Notes under the pieces: generated by a model
Told to the model about the DNA's origin: nothing
Database searches by the model: none
Seen by the model: the letters and a program-made list of their open reading frames with translations, nothing else
Shown here: in pieces, positions 742 through 11,586 of the stretch
Layout: each line of letters starts with the position of its first letter
How positions within the stretch are numbered: position 1 is the stretch's first letter
Position numbers and translations under genes: made by a program
Assembly: GCA_017654855.1 (NCBI GenBank)
Contig: CM030332.1
Coordinates: forward strand, 2,976,001 to 3,040,000
Length of the DNA: 64,000 bases
Origin: Podospora anserina
Taxonomy: Eukaryota
Direction of reading: 5' to 3'

Positions 742-2863
742 GGTTTTTGATGGCTCTGAGGTGACTGTGAGAGACATTTTGGACGATGCGATATCGTTAA
801 TATTGGTGGTGATATTGGTGTTGGGACTGTTGTGAGAGCACTCTGGGACCTAACAGTCCGAGCTATTTTGATTGATTTCAGCGTCGAGATGTCCAGCTGT
901 TAGCAAAGCCAATATTCATGTCAGTGAGATGGATGGTTGTGGTTATCGGTTGGGCTTGAGCATTCTTCAACACAGGGAGAGGACGAGATGGTCTTGTACG
1001 GCGATTCTATGTGCCTCCCGGGTCACTAGGGGTGAAAGCGGAAGAGGGCGGAGATATACAAGTAATACCAAGCGATTATCGGCAGCAAGGCAGGTGAGAC
1101 AACAGGTTGAGTTTCCAGAGTGTTCTAGTGAAGCGTGATGGCTCACTGCATATATAGACGATTCGGTGAAGACCACACGGCCCATGCCACGACAAGGTGC
1201 ATATTTGAAGCCCTGGTGTCTAGGATGTAAGGATGTGAAAGATCATGAACGACTGGTGGAACAATGGTGTCACCATGCGTTTAAGTGGGCCGCAGAGCAG
1301 GGCAGAGGGGGGCTGTCATCACTCGATGAGAACAAAGCAACCCTTTCCGTTCGGGTGGTAGCCGTAAGCTGATGCCCACTCAGGGTACCAAGCCCGCCCG
1401 ATGCTGATCCCAGCTGCATGTATGCGACTTATGAAGGAGCTAGCTTCAAATGCAGATGTCAAACGTGATATCTCGTAGATTCCGAAAGTTATGTTTTGTT
1501 GGATGGGAAACTGTTGTGTTCAGGAAGACAGTTTTCTTTCATGAGGAGGACGTCATGGTGGACTCGAGGGTTTGATCTGCATTGGCGTGTGTCTTCCATT
1601 GATGAATTTTGCTTGGGAGATAGGAATTAATAGACGTGGTGACGTCTGTTGATGATATGTGCAAGGTGTCTCACCCAAAGGCAACTTCCGTGTAAGTCGA
1701 ACATCAAAAAGTGCCATTGCCTCGTTGCAGCCTTCGATGCCTTTGGTTTGCAATAGCATCAACCTCAAGTCGACAAACCATTCCAACTTGGAGAGTCCGA
1801 AAATGTTTCGGTTCTACCATGCCCGTTATTCAAATCAACTATTGTACTGCCATCCCACGCACTCAGGTTCCCCTCTCGGACGCATTCTTCAAAACTTGAA
1901 GAACTGGCAGGTCTTATGATCTACTGCATTGAAGAAAAGCCATCTGATTCGTCTATACCCAGCCTATTCACACTGCAGAGCTAACGATGCGAGTACACCC
2001 GGACCAACAACCAAGGCGGCCTATAGACGATGTTGTGGCTTTTCGACGTTACTGACCTGTGTCTTTCATCGACGATCATGCAGCATGGATGCTCTTTTGC
2101 ACCAAAAAAGGGAAGCCGAAAGCAAATGAAACTGTCAAGTCACACCGAGGAATTGGACGATCTTGCCATCAAGTCGCATCAGTCTCAATTGATTGCAGAA
2201 AATGAAGCGATGTGATATATTTTCAATAGAATTAATGTCGCGTAAGGTAGTGAAGTCTGGCAGCGACGTCATAGAATGGTGGTGGAGGAGATGAGCTTGG
2301 TGGGGTGTTGCCGTGGATACCACGGTCCAAAAGTCAATAAAAAATGATCAACGTTTCTACTGGAGCATGGGATGACAATCACCCAGATACAAGAGCTTTT
2401 CAGTGATGCCTTGCGATGATATATCATGTGGCTATGTCTGGCCGCTCCTCGACCATGAAGAGGTACCATTCAGGCGAGGTAGGTACACCCACATTCATGT
2501 ATGATCAGTGAGCTCGCATGCGCTGTCATGGATATTTAGGTATCTAGCTAAGTGCATAGCCCCTCTAGACGAATATAACAGGTGACTGAACAGTTGCCGA
2601 CTTTCCTAAATTTATGCCGTTGACGGTGCTATCATAACTATCTGCTTCAGCTACTTGGTTGATGAAGCCAGGCTGTAAGACATAACCAAACAAAAGCAAC
2701 CTCTACAGCTTCTTGGGCCACAACCATTCTGCTGTTCGTTGGGCTCATTGAGTGTGGTTGAATACTGCCCTCTTGTGGCATTTCTGCTGAGCTGAACCCC
2801 GACTAACATTTATTTTTCAACTGGAAGGCACTTCGAGCCGGTTCTTTCTTCATAGAGTTTTCC

Positions 2864-3460
2864 ATGCTCGCTTGACATCCTGCTCGAACCACAAGGCTCC
2901 TTGGCTCCCTCTTCTGCTGAACACGGCGCTGGCCGCTGTTTGCACAGTCTGCTACCTGCTCATTATCATTCTTTATTTGGCCCCAAATGGCTATCAAATC
3001 AAGTCGTTATTGCATCCGGGCGTCGGCACAATCAAACCTACCGCCGTTGTGGGTTTTGCTGCAACCCTCGCCGCCTCAACATCGACCTTGGTAACAAGCT
3101 GCATGGAGCAATCGTTTAGCTTGCTTCTGGAGCGTCAAGAAGCAGTAGTCGCGCGTCAAATCGAAGCTAACTTTGACATGGCTACCTTGCAGGCCTTTGC
3201 CAAAGATCTGAATGCTTCCAGTCTGGTGTTGACCTATTCCAAGACCACTGCCGTGTATGTTTACAGCCCCATGTTTCTGCTTGCTCTTCGTGCGCCGTTT
3301 CTAGCAGTAATACTCGAAACCTGGGGCCGGTGCATGTCGGCAGCGCCGAAGGAGTTATAGGTATGACCCCATAGCTACTACTCGTCTTGGGCCTGTTGGG
3401 GGCCTTGCATCAGGTCCAACTCGAGCATCACCCACAACTGGAAGGAGTCCTCAGAATGAA
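2864..3460 (+). pseudogene. Degenerate membrane-protein gene remnant
   Basis: ORF 2872-3360 lacks a proper ATG and has TM-like segments (ALAAVCTVCYLLIIILYL; VYVYSPMFLLAL). A protein-like continuation (YDPIATTRLGPVGGL) lies in a shifted frame after 3360. Confidence 0.35.
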
Positions 3461-4535: not shown

Positions 4536-4721
4536 GCCCCCTCTGGCACTCGGCACCCACCTACAACATATATACACCTTCACCTCGTCTTACGACGCCT
4601 CCTCTCATTCACCTTGGCACTTGTCGACAACCCTTTGGGCATTTACTGACCGTGACCTTCAAGACCCGTCAATTACACAAAGAGACCCCCCCTTACCGGG
4701 ACGGACCCACCTAATATCTGG

Positions 4722-4864
4722 GGCTTGACGGCTTTTCAAGTTTGCAAATCAAGCCAAAAGGAAGGCTTGATTTAACTTGGTTAAAAATGAGCTTTACTTG
4801 ACTTGATTTACTTACTTATTTGACTTGACCGTCAAGTAAGTAATTGCTTGACTTAGTATCTCTA
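4722..4864. mobile_element. Probable DNA-transposon (hAT-like) terminal/subterminal remnant
   Basis: AT-rich block dense in CTTGAC/GTCAAG/TTACT motifs. Perfect inverted repeats AAATCAAGCC(4746-4755)/GGCTTGATTT(4764-4773) and ACTTGAC-C-GTCAAGT (4823-4837). Ends GTATCTCTA (= TAGAGATAC on minus). No transposase or partner end found. Confidence 0.45.
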
Positions 4865-5744
4865 CACGCTCAGCCGGCGCTTCAAAGTTCAGCATAAACG
4901 CCACATAGACCGCCATCAGTGGACGGATTTTCCAGTTGTCCTTACTTTAAGGATTTGATTGATGAAGCCTTCTCGATAAAATTTAATCATAGCTGATGAT
5001 ATATGATAGAACGACAGTGTCTCATGCTTCAAAACTTGTAGATGTTAAAGGAAGCCCGGAGAACGACATCTGGCATGCAACACTTCAACTCGATCATCAG
5101 GTGACTTGGTTTGTAGATTATTTGAGACATTTCAAGTATCATCTGTCACCTGCTGCCTGACTGTTCAAAAAGAAGATGTGAATGAAGGATGTTTTGGACT
5201 TGGGGGGAACGACCTGATATGCCAAGACGTGCCCCCTTTTTACCCCTACTCCCGTCCGTGCTTCACAACATATTGGCACCAGACTGACCGTGGCCGCACC
5301 ACTCTTGCATCAAAAAACGAAATTAATTCGGAAGAGTGTTCACAATGATTTAGTTTTGGGCTCTTCAAAGCCGTCCAGTTCGAGTGCCTGAACATTACTA
5401 TTCTCTGACAATAGTATACTTCTCAACAGCGGACAAAGGAATCTGAACAACCCCGTTGTCTCTATTCCCAGGCTTCAACAAAGCAATCACAAGGCTTCCA
5501 CATTCAAGGCCACCATCAACATTGCCATTTAAACACTTTGATATCCCTCGACCTCAAGTGAGATCTTTTCATCCCGCACACCAGTCAAGCATTCCCTCCC
5601 TTCAAGTCCCTCTGTCTCTAGAACCAGTCCCGGTGACATAAGGTTTACTTCTCTGAAGCAAGGAATCAACTGGTGGTGTCACCAACATTCATTGCTTTCC
5701 TACTCATCCCTTCCACCAAGAACACCAACTGTTTCCCAGTCACA

Positions 5745-6332
5745 ATGGCCACCCCCCTCTATCCCCCGGAGCGCAGGAGCAGGATCAAGACCCTCCTAGA
5801 CAAACTCCTCGGCCGAAACCCCAAATTCTTCAAGGTCATCAGGACCAGAAAGCTGAAATCCGCCAATGTACCCCACCCAGAGATGATGGAAGACGCATCC
5901 CACGACGCCGCCCTCCCAGACCCCTCCTTCACTACCTTTGCCAGCTCTTCTACCAACTACACTGCCCCTCCCAACAACCAAGGATGCCGTAGTCTCCTCT
6001 GCTTCACTAATCATCCCAACAGCAGCAACAGCACCACTTCATCGACCGGTGCCCGCACCTCTGCATTCTACGCCACTGGCCCATCACGTAGTTGTGCCGT
6101 GTTGGAAGGGACGCTAATCCCCACTGCTATCCAGCCCCAGACTTTCTTCCTGAGAGGTGTCCCCATACCGGAGAGCGCCAGTTCTGCTTCTTTCTCTCGT
6201 GACGATGATGATGTGAATGGACTCCCCGATGACAGGCGGACGCTTCCTAGTCAGAGGCGCCGCCAGCCGGGACTTGGACGGACGGGGAACATGAGGGATA
6301 TGAGGCAGGCTTATCTTGATTCAGGTAGGTGA
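5745..6332 (+). CDS. Hypothetical protein (195 aa, low complexity)
   Basis: ATG in good fungal context (CACAATGG), C-ending codon bias in the 5' half, no recognisable domain. Confidence 0.55.
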   Translation: MATPLYPPERRSRIKTLLDKLLGRNPKFFKVIRTRKLKSANVPHPEMMEDASHDAALPDPSFTTFASSSTNYTAPPNNQGCRSLLCFTNHPNSSNSTTSSTGARTSAFYATGPSRSCAVLEGTLIPTAIQPQTFFLRGVPIPESASSASFSRDDDDVNGLPDDRRTLPSQRRRQPGLGRTGNMRDMRQAYLDSGR

Positions 6333-6705
6333 GCAAGGTTCTGTGAGGAGGTGAGTAAGTGAATTTGTAAGATTGGAGAGATGAGGCTGGTCCTTGCGAG
6401 ATTCACCACCATGGCCAGACTGGGGTGACATGACATCGATAATACATAATTCTTTTTTTTTGGTCAATTGAACTAACTAACTTTCAGTGTGCTATTTCTG
6501 TGCAATTTTGTGTGTCGTGTTTTTGTGTTGTTGGAAGAAGTGAGGGAGCGCGTTGTTGCCCGCCCAGCAAAGTCGCAAAAACTCGACTGGCAAGCAGAAG
6601 CACGACTCCAAGAACCGCAACACTTAAGGATCACATGAAGCCCAGACCTACATCAAACAAAACAGATAGGAAAAGCTGATATCATGTAATATGAAGAAAA
6701 GAAGC

Positions 6706-6880
6706 AAAAAATGGCAAAAGCTCACCGGCCAACCCGTGGGGTGGCCGGCTACGAAAGCTGTTTCGGGGTCAAACAACTTTGCTTCGTAGGGGACTCGAAC
6801 TGGGCCTGTCCGAATCCCCGGATTGGGTGGGCGGACAGCCAGCCCACTTGACCATTTGGCCGTCGGATAGTGGGCTGCTG
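6706..6880 (-). ncRNA. Candidate RNA polymerase III-transcribed structured ncRNA (unknown class; tRNA-type internal promoter)
   Basis: Minus strand: upstream TTATAG (6904-6909), A-box-like CGGCCAAATGG (6852-6862), B-box AGTTCGAGTCC (6791-6801), four consecutive hairpins (6841-6876, 6806-6838, 6749-6789, 6725-6748), then TTTT (6716-6719) and TTTTTT (6706-6711). No tRNA acceptor stem. Confidence 0.6.
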
Positions 6881-8219
6881 TTGGAAGGTACAACTTGGAA
6901 CTACTATAAGTACTGCCTGCTCTTGCTCATGAGGAAGGAACGAGTTTCAAGGGTGACTGTTTGTCAGCGGGAGCCTTCGCCGTGACTTGCTCTTGCCCCG
7001 ACCAACCACCTGATCGTCTTTCTGCTTCCATGTCAAATTGAAATCGAGAGAAACAGTATTGGGCCTGACAGTCACCCAGCGGGCTGAAGTAAACTTTCAT
7101 CCAAGATATTGTAGCATGGATGTTGGCTGTTAGCTACCGTAATAAAAGGTGAAACTTGGGGGATTTCTCCCAGTTGAAGGTTGACTTGCGCGGCCTCATC
7201 TTTGCAATCCCAGACTGACGGACAGACTCGCACACAAATTTGATGTGGTTACACATCTCCCGCAAGACAAAAAGACATTCTGAATTTCATGGAACACATG
7301 TGACCTGTTGATCAACGTCTTACATTACCCTCTTGGTATCTGGAGTCTTGCGGCAAAGTGCCACCCGGCTGGGAACCGCCTGACGACCTCGACAAAGTAC
7401 GGGCGGGGCAGTTAAGAGACCAGGTCAAGAACAAAAAAAAATACTCTACATGACAGTTCTACAGTGGCCAATATCACGGTAAGCCCGACAAAAACTGTCC
7501 CTGGCGAAAAGCCGAAAGAATGTTGCATCAAAGCGACAGGCTACGACAGGCCCAGAGCCTCATCCACCACGCCGGGTCAGCCAAGCTGCAGCATTGACGA
7601 GATTCACGGAAATATGATCTAGAGTTTCTCGTCAAAGATTTTTGCTGGTGAATACTGGATGTGCATCACGGCAAACACCGATCAAAAGTGAGTGGGAGCA
7701 ACTCCGGCCATGACCCCTGAACAATAAGCCGAGCCTTCCTAATCGGGACTTGAATAAACACTGAATAGGGGCTTGCCCCAGACACCCAAACTTCGGCATA
7801 CTCGACAGACAAAAGAAAGCCCAGACACGCGACAAACATGTGGCCCGGTCACATCGTGTCTTTGATGATCTGTCTTGTCCTCGGGAAGCCATCGTAGAGT
7901 CTGCACCGGACTCGACGGCAAGGTCCATGAGCTGCGAATGAGTTTGCCTTCTTGCTTTTGATCGACTACAACATCTTTGTCGCGGATCGATCAATTCCTG
8001 GATTCTAGACAGCGCGTTGCCTATTCGGGGTCTGAATAGTTCATTGACATCCACCGGCATCCTCCAAAGTCTGGGCCACGGCAACAATAAACTCTTCCGT
8101 CTGAACGGAACATGTCTTTTGTCGAATGCTCCTGGGGATGTCCGATATGACCTGCTTATTCTTTGAACCTGTGCTATGGATAGCAACTGCTGAAGTGCCT
8201 CCACCACCTTCAGTGCTCA

Positions 8220-8284
8220 CTCAATAGAGCCCTATTGACACAATAAACACCAGCCCCTGAATAGGGGCGCTTTCGGATATAAAA
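8220..8284 (+). promoter_or_regulatory. Pheromone-gene promoter: palindromic CTATTG-type (alpha-box/HMG-like) sites and TATA box
   Basis: TCAATAG-agcc-CTATTGA (8221-8238), GCCCCT-gaat-AGGGGC (8253-8268), TATAAAA (8278-8284), followed by a pyrimidine tract, ~160 nt upstream of the ATG. Confidence 0.6.
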
Positions 8285-8313
8285 GGCCTCGTCCATCACC
8301 ACCATCTCTCTCC

Positions 8314-8340
8314 CTTTCCTTTCCTTTCCTTTCCTTTCCT
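8314..8340 (+). repeat. (TTTCC)n pyrimidine microsatellite / CT-box
   Basis: ctttcctttcctttcctttcctttcct just downstream of the TATA box. Confidence 0.8.
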
Positions 8341-8439
8341 CCTCATCCCGCTCAAGTCAGTCTTTGAATACTTCAGCTTCTTCACAACCCCTTTTTTTTA
8401 AAAAAAAAACAAAAAACTTCCCAACCAAAAACCACCAAA

Positions 8440-9105
8440 ATGAAGTTTTCCACCCCCCTCGCTCTCCTCGCCGTCGCTGCCGTCGACGCCGCTGTTGTCC
8501 AGGAGGACAAGCGCTGGTGCAACACCGAGGGCCAGGCCTGCAACACCGTTGCCCGCGCCGCCGAGGCTTTCACCAACGCCATCAAGGCCTCCGGCGTCGT
8601 TGCCCGTGACGACTCCGCCGCCGCTCAGGTCGCCGCCCGCCAGGTCGACCAGCTCGCCCTCGCCATCTCCGCCTCCCAGGCCGACCCCATCACCTTCTAC
8701 ACCGCCCTCGGCCTCGGTGACCAGTTCACCCTCGAGGAGAAGCCCCACGCCGAGAAGCGCGAGGCCGCCCCCCAGTGGTGCCTCCGCTTCGTCGGCCAGT
8801 CCTGCTGGAAGCGCAACGCCGCCCCCGAGGACGTCAAGCGGTGCACCGCCGAGGACGGCGCCTGCACCAAGGCCAAGCGCGCCGCCGAGGCCGTCATCAA
8901 CGCCATCGAGGCTTCCGCCGACAACCTCGCCAAGCGTGAGGCCGCCCCCCAGTGGTGCCTCCGTTTCGTCGGCCAGTCCTGCTGGAAGCGCAACGCCGCC
9001 CCCGAGGCTGCCTGCAACGCCCCCGACGGCGCCTGCACCAAGGCCACCCGCGACATCCACGCCATGTACAACGCTGCCCGCCACATCATCGATGCCTCCG
9101 CTTAA
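8440..9105 (+). CDS. mfm: Alpha-factor-like mating pheromone precursor (Podospora mfm; ccg-4/ppg1 family)
   Basis: Signal peptide MKFSTPLALLAVAAVDA. Two copies of KR-EA-AP-QWCLRFVGQSCW-KR (8773-8808, 8950-8985) with Kex2 KR sites and X-A/X-P dipeptides. 221 aa, strong codon bias. Confidence 0.95.
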   Translation: MKFSTPLALLAVAAVDAAVVQEDKRWCNTEGQACNTVARAAEAFTNAIKASGVVARDDSAAAQVAARQVDQLALAISASQADPITFYTALGLGDQFTLEEKPHAEKREAAPQWCLRFVGQSCWKRNAAPEDVKRCTAEDGACTKAKRAAEAVINAIEASADNLAKREAAPQWCLRFVGQSCWKRNAAPEAACNAPDGACTKATRDIHAMYNAARHIIDASA

Positions 9106-9726
9106 GCGGCTCGTTGGTCAACTCGGCAACAGCAAGAGTGACGCTCTTCTCCTTCTTTGTATATGGTTGGCGACATAGAAAACGACAGATCCCTTCTCAA
9201 GACAAGTCACCCCTCCACCCTCGCAACAACACGTTAGAAAACCGATGATATACATCCCTTTCTTCGACAAATACCCTTATTCACCTTCTTCGCGCGGGCA
9301 CTGAACCCGACATCTGGCAAGTTCTTTACACTTGCATTTCCCAACATGAGCATCGCCTTCGTTTGCTTCAACCGGTTTCCCGAGAGTTGGAGTAGGGTCG
9401 GCAGTCCAACACTTTTTAGTATCGCGGGGTGGACATCTGTCAACTTTTTCATAGTTACATAACAAACAAATACATATTTATTCTGGCGTTGGGCCGGCAA
9501 AAAACCATTTGTTCTCTATGCCTTGACGTGAAGTGTGACCTGTGCCAATGTTAGCCCCTGAGACCTGAGCATGATCATCCAGACCTTGTTCTCTCCAATG
9601 CACATTCACCCAACAACTACAGGCTCAAGTTTGTTCAAAAATGTTGAAATTCCCGCTTGCTTTGCTTTTGGCTCCTTTATACATGACAGCCCCATCCATC
9701 CCCACCCCTGGACATCATCATCACAA

Positions 9727-10622: not shown

Positions 10623-11586
10623 GGTAGGTATTCCGTTAAAGCAGTAGTCGCTCAGGCATCTGTTCAAATATCAGGTTCGTAAGAAGCAGGCAATCCAGGG
10701 CGATGATCGTCTTTGGAGCTCCCAGACGCAGTCAGTCATTCCGGTTTCCGGGAAGCAGCGGCATCCAATGTCGCATGCCAAGCCAAGCCCCCTTTGCCCA
10801 ACTTCCCACCATCCGTTCCATCCAAACCCGCTTTCAGCCACAACCCCCCCAAACCCACCAGCCACACTAGGCCCAAGCTCAGCCCCACCACCCAAATCCG
10901 CCCATAAAACCTCTCTTTGCCTTTCCAGATTTGATTTTTTTCCCTTTTACTTCTTCATATTGAACAACGCAAATTATCACATTCACACAGGACTAGTTAC
11001 CTTATATGCGATTGAGAGGTTCGCTTTCTGCTATTCTTCGGGATGGCAATCGTCTGGACCCACGACCAGTTTGCATTCGTCTCTGGCTGTAAATGGAGAA
11101 CAAACCACAAAAATGCTTGATCTTGGGTGCGGTTCTCTTCTTCCCGTGGAGAGGGGCGCAATGATTGAACATACATTTCTTTTGCTTTATATTTGGAGTG
11201 TTTTGATTTGATTTGCCTCTGTCCACTATTCGGTCTGTAAAAGAGGACTTGTGGGTGGTCGTTGTCTTGCAACTTTGCTTGCTCATCTGGATGGCAAGAA
11301 AACTCTGTAATCTGCGAAACTTCGCGACTCCTGCAAAAGTTGTCTGCTTCCAGCATGGGACCATTTGTGTGGTCCAGGTCGAATTTTGCAAAGGGGGGAA
11401 TCTCAGAAAACTCTGTCAGTATGAGTATTTTGCATTTGGGTGAGTCCACAGAAACTCAAGCCTGTGGTGGAAGAGAGTTATAGTCACGACTGCATCAATG
11501 GTTGGTCAATGTCAATAATGAGAAACAAGTTGAGGTAATTACCAGGCTCGACACCAAGCACAAAGAGTTTATTCGTGGCATTAAAT

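Follow-up and report, generated by a model that had tools for sequence, protein, structure and literature searches.

A 64,000-nucleotide stretch of the Podospora anserina genome (assembly GCA_017654855.1, contig CM030332.1, positions 2,976,001 to 3,040,000), referred to here as the window, carries a hairpin-rich element at positions 6706 to 6910. The element is read on the minus strand, and all of its coordinates below are positions of the 64-kb window. The original prediction, made from the DNA letters, described it as a small RNA gene of the RNA polymerase III (Pol III) type upstream of a pheromone locus and listed an A box, a B box, four hairpins, a TATA-like motif, and T-run terminators; every motif in that inventory is present in the sequence on the minus strand. 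The hairpin-rich stretch is real. It belongs to a small family dispersed in several ascomycete fungi, in which a degenerate tRNA-like head is attached to a near-invariant tail of two hairpins, and it is most likely a retroposon of the short interspersed element (SINE) type and not a unique RNA gene.

Anatomy and folding of the window copy

Direct reading of the minus strand places a TATA-like motif, TTATAG, at 6904 to 6909, about 27 nucleotides upstream of a CAAC start region. The putative start region itself, CCTTCCAACAGC, was also read directly and occupies 6877 to 6888. It lies within the 5' border of the family, TACCTTCCAACAGC (6877 to 6890), the likeness to paralogous copies stopping at 6887 to 6890. 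Hairpin 1 follows at 6841 to 6876, with an 8-bp stem formed by the arms AGCCCACT (6869 to 6876) and AGTGGGCT (6841 to 6848). The A-box-like motif originally chosen, CGGCCAAATGG, lies within this hairpin at 6852 to 6862, and a better match, TGGTCAAGTGG at 6844 to 6854, agrees with the A box in 10 of 11 letters and corrects that choice. Next comes a variable middle (6802 to 6840), which contains the predicted hairpin 2 (6806 to 6838, with arms CTGTCCG at 6832 to 6838 and CGGACAG at 6806 to 6812) or, in a rival fold, the 5' arm (6808 to 6819) of a 12-bp hairpin. The B-box-like motif AGTTCGAGTCC at 6791 to 6801 matches in 10 of 11 letters and starts 53 nucleotides after the start of the best A-box match. 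By itself such a match is at chance level, with 4 sites of one mismatch or fewer in the window against 4.97 expected, and for this reason the case for the element is made from the combination of features and from comparison with other copies.

The tail of the element consists of two further hairpins and a short 3' end. Hairpin 3 (6749 to 6789) has the base CGAAG..UUUCG and a variable apical stem. Hairpin 4 (6724 to 6749), the near-invariant core of the tail, reads RCCGGCCACCC, a loop, GGG, a bulged U, and UGGCCGGU. The 3' end, GAGCTTTTGCCATTTTTT at 6706 to 6723, comprises GAGC (6720 to 6723), a run of four T (6716 to 6719), and a run of six T (6706 to 6711). The six-T run is a possible Pol III stop, and the likeness to paralogues ends on this side at 6706 or at 6716/6717. 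The sequence after hairpin 4 in the window reads TGAGCTTTT. A blastn search of the element against the 64-kb window gave no second copy.

A 175-nucleotide stretch of the element has a minimum free energy (MFE) of -75.9 kcal/mol, compared with -56.5 ± 4.7 kcal/mol for dinucleotide-shuffled versions (z = -4.09); not one of the 200 shuffles is as stable. The MFE fold retains hairpins 1, 3, and 4. The letters of hairpin 2 are present as described, but the MFE fold prefers the competing 12-bp hairpin, in which 6808 to 6819 pair with 6789 to 6800 and which takes in the letters of the B box. Either of these two hairpins may form.

Copies in the genome and relatives in other ascomycetes

Contigs containing this stretch are present in 20 public sequencing runs, with 35 to 52 Mb of contigs each, and four of the runs (X2, X21, X22, and X24) were aligned to positions 5600 to 9200. 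X2 is DNA of another strain. X21 and X22 are seemingly low-coverage DNA, and their contig gaps at about 6400 to 7060 and 6570 to 7320 are uninformative on the presence of the element. The original prediction had favored a gene and had named copy number as the measure that would separate a gene from a SINE; that measure contradicts a single-copy gene, since seven tail copies with unrelated flanks are found. In X2, the tail (6733 to 6749) lies in seven contigs, each at single-copy depth (46.2, 41.7, 42.9, 47.5, 44.3, 46.5, and 35.9, summing to 305). The 5' hairpin reaches a depth of 319.8 at 6861, which at about 46 per copy corresponds to some six copies, and the middle (6775 to 6834) has a depth of 93.7, corresponding to two copies; there, two of the seven are alignable, with many substitutions and insertions. 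The family thus has about seven tail-bearing copies in this genome, and the loose ends of the X2 copies, that is, their flanks, differ from one another.

The copies vary in completeness. A near full-length paralogue on an 18.5-kb X2 contig covers 6717 to 6890 with 14 substitutions and 12 gap letters. In a deleted copy, the 77 nucleotides from 6771 to 6847 are replaced by three letters, a tail-only copy shares just 6716 to 6774, and three copies leave the alignment within hairpin 3. On the sense strand, pyrimidines predominate in all four of the listed 3' flanks, and each flank has a run of four to eight T. The upstream 30-letter ends of two X2 paralogues, taken as the reverse complement, show ATAGTA- or TGTAGTA-like letters at differing distances. 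At 6858 to 6881, inside hairpin 1, the X2 assembly of the orthologous locus is interrupted, with overlapping contig ends, which fits the presence of exact long words common to other head copies.

Comparison of the window copy with the near full-length paralogue gave six substitutions within the stems of hairpin 3 and hairpin 4, and five of the six leave pairing intact; positions were taken from the aligned, gapped X2 contigs, and those near insertions or deletions are uncertain. In hairpin 4, the change 6747 C>U leaves a G-U pair, and 6749 G>A allows an A-U pair with U6724. In hairpin 3, the changes 6775 U>C and 6759 A>G compensate for each other, and 6776 U>C replaces a U-G pair by C-G. The sixth, 6787 A>C, disrupts a pair at the foot of hairpin 3, in an extension of the stem that is missing from the relatives. 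Where the copies differ in length, the differences are concentrated in or beside the hairpin-4 loop.

A scan of metagenome contigs with a degenerate pattern of the tail gave 14 loci, three of which (L002, L006, and L008) carry the whole build and, with the window copy, are the four members compared here. The other 11 loci lack the remaining parts of the element; they are chance matches in GC-rich, coding-like sequence and were excluded from the counts. The same pattern had no match in viral contigs. By pairwise BLAST the window tail is 95.6% identical to L002 over 45 nucleotides, 93.2% identical to L006 over 44 nucleotides, and 95.5% identical to L008 over 44 nucleotides, and L006 and L008 are 69% identical to each other over 211 nucleotides. 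The heads of the window copy, L002, and the L006/L008 pair are mutually unalignable. In tblastx and blastn comparisons of the window with L002, L006, and L008, the flanks shared nothing and only the element matched. The flanks of the relatives code for ordinary ascomycete proteins, including an IBR-type E3 ligase, a pectinesterase, and a histidine phosphatase. Open reading frames (ORFs) with an IBR domain, of the RBR E3 ligase type, occur in L002 (132 to 3038, minus strand) and in L006 (406 to 1350, plus strand), about 1.3 to 3.1 kb from the element and in differing orientations. Their presence near both elements is probably coincidence; the tblastx likeness between them is weak and at the level of the domain.

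The build of the element is the same in all four members. Each has a 5' hairpin with an A-box-like loop, ranging from 8 to about 18 bp, with stem sequences that differ. The best A-box-type matches in the four members have 1, 3, 0, and 1 mismatches, the L006 motif TGGCTCAGTTGG agreeing fully with the 12-letter form. B-box-like motifs in the relatives are GGTTCGAACCC in L008 (one mismatch), CGTTCGAATCA in L002 (two mismatches), and AGTTCAAATTC in L006 (three mismatches), and the A-to-B-box spacing, start to start, is 45 to 53 nucleotides in all four. At the position equivalent to the window start region TACCTTCCAACAGC, L006 has similar letters, CCCTCCAAC. No TATA-like motif was found upstream of the three metagenome relatives. 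Head and tail are joined by an A/C-rich linker in L002, L006, and L008, and the window copy has none. The L008 head shows a D-arm and, with UGG, an anticodon-arm-like hairpin. Hairpin 3 is found in each member, with the base CGAA..UUCG in three and a different apical stem in every one. The letters UA, hairpin 4, and GAGCYUUUGC are nearly invariant across the four, with the differences falling within the hairpin-4 loop. In this conserved GAGCYTTTGC motif, the L006 tail reads CTTT, so the window T4 is part of the conserved tail and not a terminator only. A pairing of GAGCU with AGUUC, proposed to close a junction, is possible in 4/4 members, both partners being conserved for other reasons.

All four members fold better than their shuffles, with z values of -4.4, -3.7, -4.2, and -7.5 (100 shuffles each). 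The original prediction had taken G-U wobbles as a mark of the strand, and this did not hold, as the sense strand folds better in two members and worse in the other two. What fixes the strand is the direction of the A- and B-box-like motifs, which is the same in all four.

Beside L006, 145 nucleotides downstream of the element and on the same strand, Rfam gives a candidate C/D-box small nucleolar RNA (snoRNA) at 4669 to 4742 (plus strand), which is snR56-like and scores 37.1 bits (E = 0.05), under the gathering score. A GTACGT, a TTAAC branch-like site, and a TAG around it suggest the intron of a noncoding host transcript.

Known RNA classes, similar systems, and the pheromone neighborhood

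The proposal that the element is neither a tRNA nor another catalogued RNA stood up to each program used. Whether or not introns are allowed, ARAGORN predicts no tRNA in the window, and at default settings it predicts none in any of the four members (window, L002, L006, and L008). With thresholds lowered to 80%, it reports a tRNA-Pro(tgg)-like head in L008 and a tRNA-Trp(cca)-like head in L006; these calls are sub-threshold, with proper anticodon loops, and the window head is called at no threshold. A cloverleaf, with acceptor stem and T arm, is absent, and reading of the letters around the B box gave no T stem. The Rfam tRNA model has no sense-strand match in the members, its sole match being on the opposite strand of L008 (12.5 bits, E = 9.2). 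At the gathering score, Rfam 15 gives nothing at the window locus, and at E values up to 10 the 800 nucleotides around it have scattered 11- to 18-bit matches to unrelated families only. The tail has no Rfam match at E up to 10 and no RNA gene known as its source. In the relatives, Rfam at E up to 1 gives nothing within the elements and, beside L006, the one snoRNA described above. Elsewhere in the window, positions 10958 to 11176 (plus strand) match the Rfam family Afu_182, an Aspergillus fumigatus small RNA, over the full model length (81.1 bits, gathering score 65, E = 7.7e-13); this is the only Rfam family in the 64 kb. A bacterial promoter and terminator scan gave irrelevant matches only.

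Likeness to a canonical tRNA gene lies in the A- and B-box-like motifs, spaced 45 to 53 nucleotides apart, and in the D-arm and anticodon-arm-like hairpin of the L008 head; the difference is that there is no cloverleaf. Dimeric or composite SINEs of the Alu-type build have an internal A-rich linker, which the A/C-rich linker of L002, L006, and L008 resembles, whereas the window copy lacks one.

The closest fungal comparison is AfuSINE2 of Aspergillus fumigatus, described as a set of low-copy, tRNA-derived SINEs of 140 to 493 bp, the tail of AfuSINE2-1a matching a long interspersed element (LINE) of the Tad1/I clade; the same text mentions the Mg-SINE of Magnaporthe (PMC5063351). The comparison was made with that description. 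The described AfuSINE2 elements and the window family are both short, with a tRNA-related head bearing Pol III boxes and a tRNA-unrelated remainder, and both are dispersed at very low copy number with some copies within other transcripts (PMC5063351). Against that description, the window family differs in lacking an A-rich or ACT-repeat end and in showing a direct repeat in one of four members (PMC5063351). Its tail is also a near-invariant two-hairpin module across genomes, for which no LINE partner was found.

A second point of comparison is milR-4 of Neurospora, a microRNA-like RNA (milRNA) whose tRNA-linked hairpin precursor is reported to be transcribed by Pol III and dependent on RNase Z; the same report also cites the tRNA-microRNA units of murine gammaherpesvirus 68 (MHV68) (PMC3547838). 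The window family shares with them a tRNA or tRNA-like unit, one or two hairpins, a T run, and the logic of an internal Pol III promoter, and an RNase Z cut after the tRNA part would be plausible by analogy. True tRNA-Ala genes stand on both sides of milR-4 (PMC3547838); the window family has degenerate heads. The window family further differs from milR-4, as described there, in its short hairpins, multiple copies, and deleted copies.

Signs of expression come from run X24, which was taken as RNA from its behavior (adaptor ends, zero intergenic depth, and depth over the pheromone gene), no run being recorded as RNA. X24 has no contig over the window's own copy, a gap that says nothing on its expression. 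Two paralogue tails are found in X24 contigs of depth 127 and 33. The first of these contigs extends at least 255 nucleotides on both sides of the tail, and the other begins 27 nucleotides upstream of 6756, at the base of hairpin 3, and extends at least 255 nucleotides beyond the T runs.

A secreted pheromone-precursor ORF (MKFSTPLALL...) lies at 8440 to 9105 on the plus strand, with two QWCLRFVGQSCW repeats after KR-type sites, and reaches a depth of about 1,000 to 3,000 in X24. Just upstream of it, a repeat at 8305 to 8424 is skipped in the X2 and X24 alignments, with contigs cut on both sides. Between the element and the pheromone gene, X24 has short RNA contigs at 7340 to 7557 (depth 7.7) and 7884 to 8082 (depth 13.1), in a region with no obvious long ORF. 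The idea of a unique RNA gene tied to the pheromone locus gains no support. For the window copy there is neither a sign of recent movement nor a demonstrated tie to the neighboring pheromone gene.

Origin and possible function of the family

The reading we favor, held at about even confidence, is that window positions 6706 to 6890 on the minus strand are a copy of a low-copy, dispersed, tRNA-derived, SINE-like Pol III family. In part this follows the original prediction, which had offered a new Pol III RNA, a milRNA-type precursor, or the head of a tRNA-derived SINE. Its Pol III-type anatomy holds and its unique RNA gene does not, and the SINE option fits best of the three because there are many copies and because different tRNA-like heads stand on a common tail. 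Motif matches to the A and B boxes point to an internal Pol III promoter, and seven X2 contigs and three relatives, all with unrelated flanks, place the family at dispersed sites. Deleted and tail-only copies, and varied heads attached to a common tail, are the usual picture of a SINE family. Under this reading, the 5' hairpin with its A-box-like loop and the B-box-like motif 45 to 53 nucleotides further on would be a degenerate tRNA-derived head, followed by a variable linker or body and then by a tail of variable hairpin 3, GC-rich near-invariant hairpin 4, and GAGCYUUUGC. TFIIIC and TFIIIB would recognize the internal boxes, perhaps helped by the upstream TTATAG, and Pol III would transcribe the element, tail included, as far as a T run. 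The tail, with its stem-loops, could then serve as a handle for the reverse transcriptase of a partner LINE, an element without long terminal repeats, and that enzyme would copy the element RNA into new sites by retroposition. A 17-bp direct repeat, identical at 15 of 17 positions, stands on either side of the L008 element, with a score reached by none of 200 shuffles; one of its copies adjoins the head, and 36 nucleotides separate GAGC from the second. Tad-type LINEs of Neurospora leave target duplications of 14 to 17 bp and no poly(A) end, traits that would fit both the length of the L008 repeat and the absent A tail.

Several observations weigh against a SINE-like origin. The flanking direct repeats of the window copy, L002, and L006 are no better than those of shuffled sequences, leaving one positive member of four. 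The 3' end is neither A-rich nor a simple repeat: in all four members the sense strand closes with GAGCYTTTGC and a T-rich stretch. This lowers the case for SINE membership without excluding it, because not all LINE clades leave such ends. No LINE with the tail of the element was seen, and 10 ORFs scanned in the contigs of the relatives contain no reverse-transcriptase domain. A T5 in L008 and a T4 in L002 lie between head and tail and could halt Pol III early. Some copies are parts of longer transcripts, as the X24 tails sit in longer contigs. Divergence from the paralogue is uneven, the 5' hairpin having no listed substitution, the tail 3, and the middle 8 together with about 11 inserted letters; changes that keep pairing and fall so unevenly look like selection on each copy and not neutral decay.

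Such a pattern could instead be expected of a family of functional Pol III small-RNA genes, which we regard, tentatively, as the main alternative. Here, the head would be an internal promoter, perhaps with a leader cut by RNase P or RNase Z. It is possible, though we would not expect it, that the hairpin 3/4 domain is the working RNA or that the unit is a tRNA-linked precursor of small RNAs like those of milR-4 and MHV68; on the same footing, the constant hairpin 4 may be a protein handle and hairpin 3 or the middle the specific part. This account is favored by tails that are 93 to 96% identical over 44 to 45 nucleotides between genomes with unalignable heads, and by variation that falls in loops while five of six stem changes still pair, with one compensatory double change. 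Hairpin 3 is kept in all four members despite different apical sequences, paralogues share a conserved 5' hairpin and tail around a replaced middle, each of the four listed pyrimidine-rich 3' flanks has its run of four to eight T, and a related fungus offers the precedent of a Pol III-transcribed, tRNA-linked, RNase Z-dependent milRNA (PMC3547838). It is harder to reconcile with the RNA seen, since no discrete small RNA appears and the X24 paralogue tails run on at least 255 nucleotides past the tail. Deleted and tail-only copies, the one direct repeat, and the swapping of heads are easier to explain by retroposition. Moreover, the stems are short for Dicer (hairpin 3 has 5 to 14 bp in MFE folds and 9 to 11 bp by manual pairing, and hairpin 4 has 11 bp), and the T4 or T5 between head and tail in two of four members would count against transcription of the whole unit here as well. 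We are slightly more reserved about the broader proposal of an uncatalogued, ascomycete-wide class of Pol III small RNAs. In such a class the tRNA-like head might be disposable, the variable hairpin might confer paralogue specificity, and the hairpin-4/GAGCYUUUGC module of about 45 nucleotides might bind a conserved protein, all with the same reserve. It could then be a cellular counterpart of the viral tRNA-hairpin units, its copies being working paralogues or a gene plus retrocopies, a proposal on which we place no greater weight.

A repeat acting at the level of DNA is unlikely. It would be a miniature inverted-repeat transposable element (MITE), a transposon of the Helitron/Helentron type, or a recombination or protein-binding site, in which the tRNA-like motifs are incidental. 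Conserved 5' and 3' modules around a variable or deleted interior, the near-perfect GC-rich palindrome of hairpin 4 near one end, the even split in folding energy between strands (2/4 versus 2/4), and the three of four members without a flanking repeat would all suit it. However, A and B boxes in the same order and spacing in all four members and tRNA-like calls in two relatives would be unexpected. Reading of the ends also gave no terminal inverted repeat, the inverted matches between members falling within single hairpin regions only. Helitron-type ends read TC...CTRR with a subterminal hairpin, and the TGAGCTTTT that follows hairpin 4 has no end of the CTRR type. The remaining account, chance hairpins and promoter-like motifs in ordinary intergenic DNA, is hardly credible. 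The lone B-box match is at chance level, and no RNA of the window copy was seen, but no shuffle of 200 folds as well, and the fold statistics, the seven tail copies in the same genome, and the three ascomycete relatives with the same build together put the element beyond chance; the genome copies and relatives in effect refute this account. The SINE-like family and the small-RNA genes can overlap, as a functional master gene with retrocopies.

The literature searched has no SINE of Podospora or other Sordariales and no such family, although supplementary transposable-element libraries and Repbase may list one. The words SINE and MITE do not occur in the main text of the Podospora genome paper. 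A full-text literature search for the 13-letter tail core, as DNA and RNA letters on both strands, gave only an unrelated human enzyme study. SINEs of filamentous fungi are poorly catalogued. If the element belongs to a SINE family, its constant tail with exchanged heads would be a clue to the LINE clade that mobilizes it, and would offer insight into how chimeras arise in genomes policed by repeat-induced point mutation. If the tail is a functional RNA module, it would represent a new conserved fungal Pol III RNA. For annotation, the element should be treated as a member of a repeat family and not, absent evidence, as a regulator of the pheromone gene.

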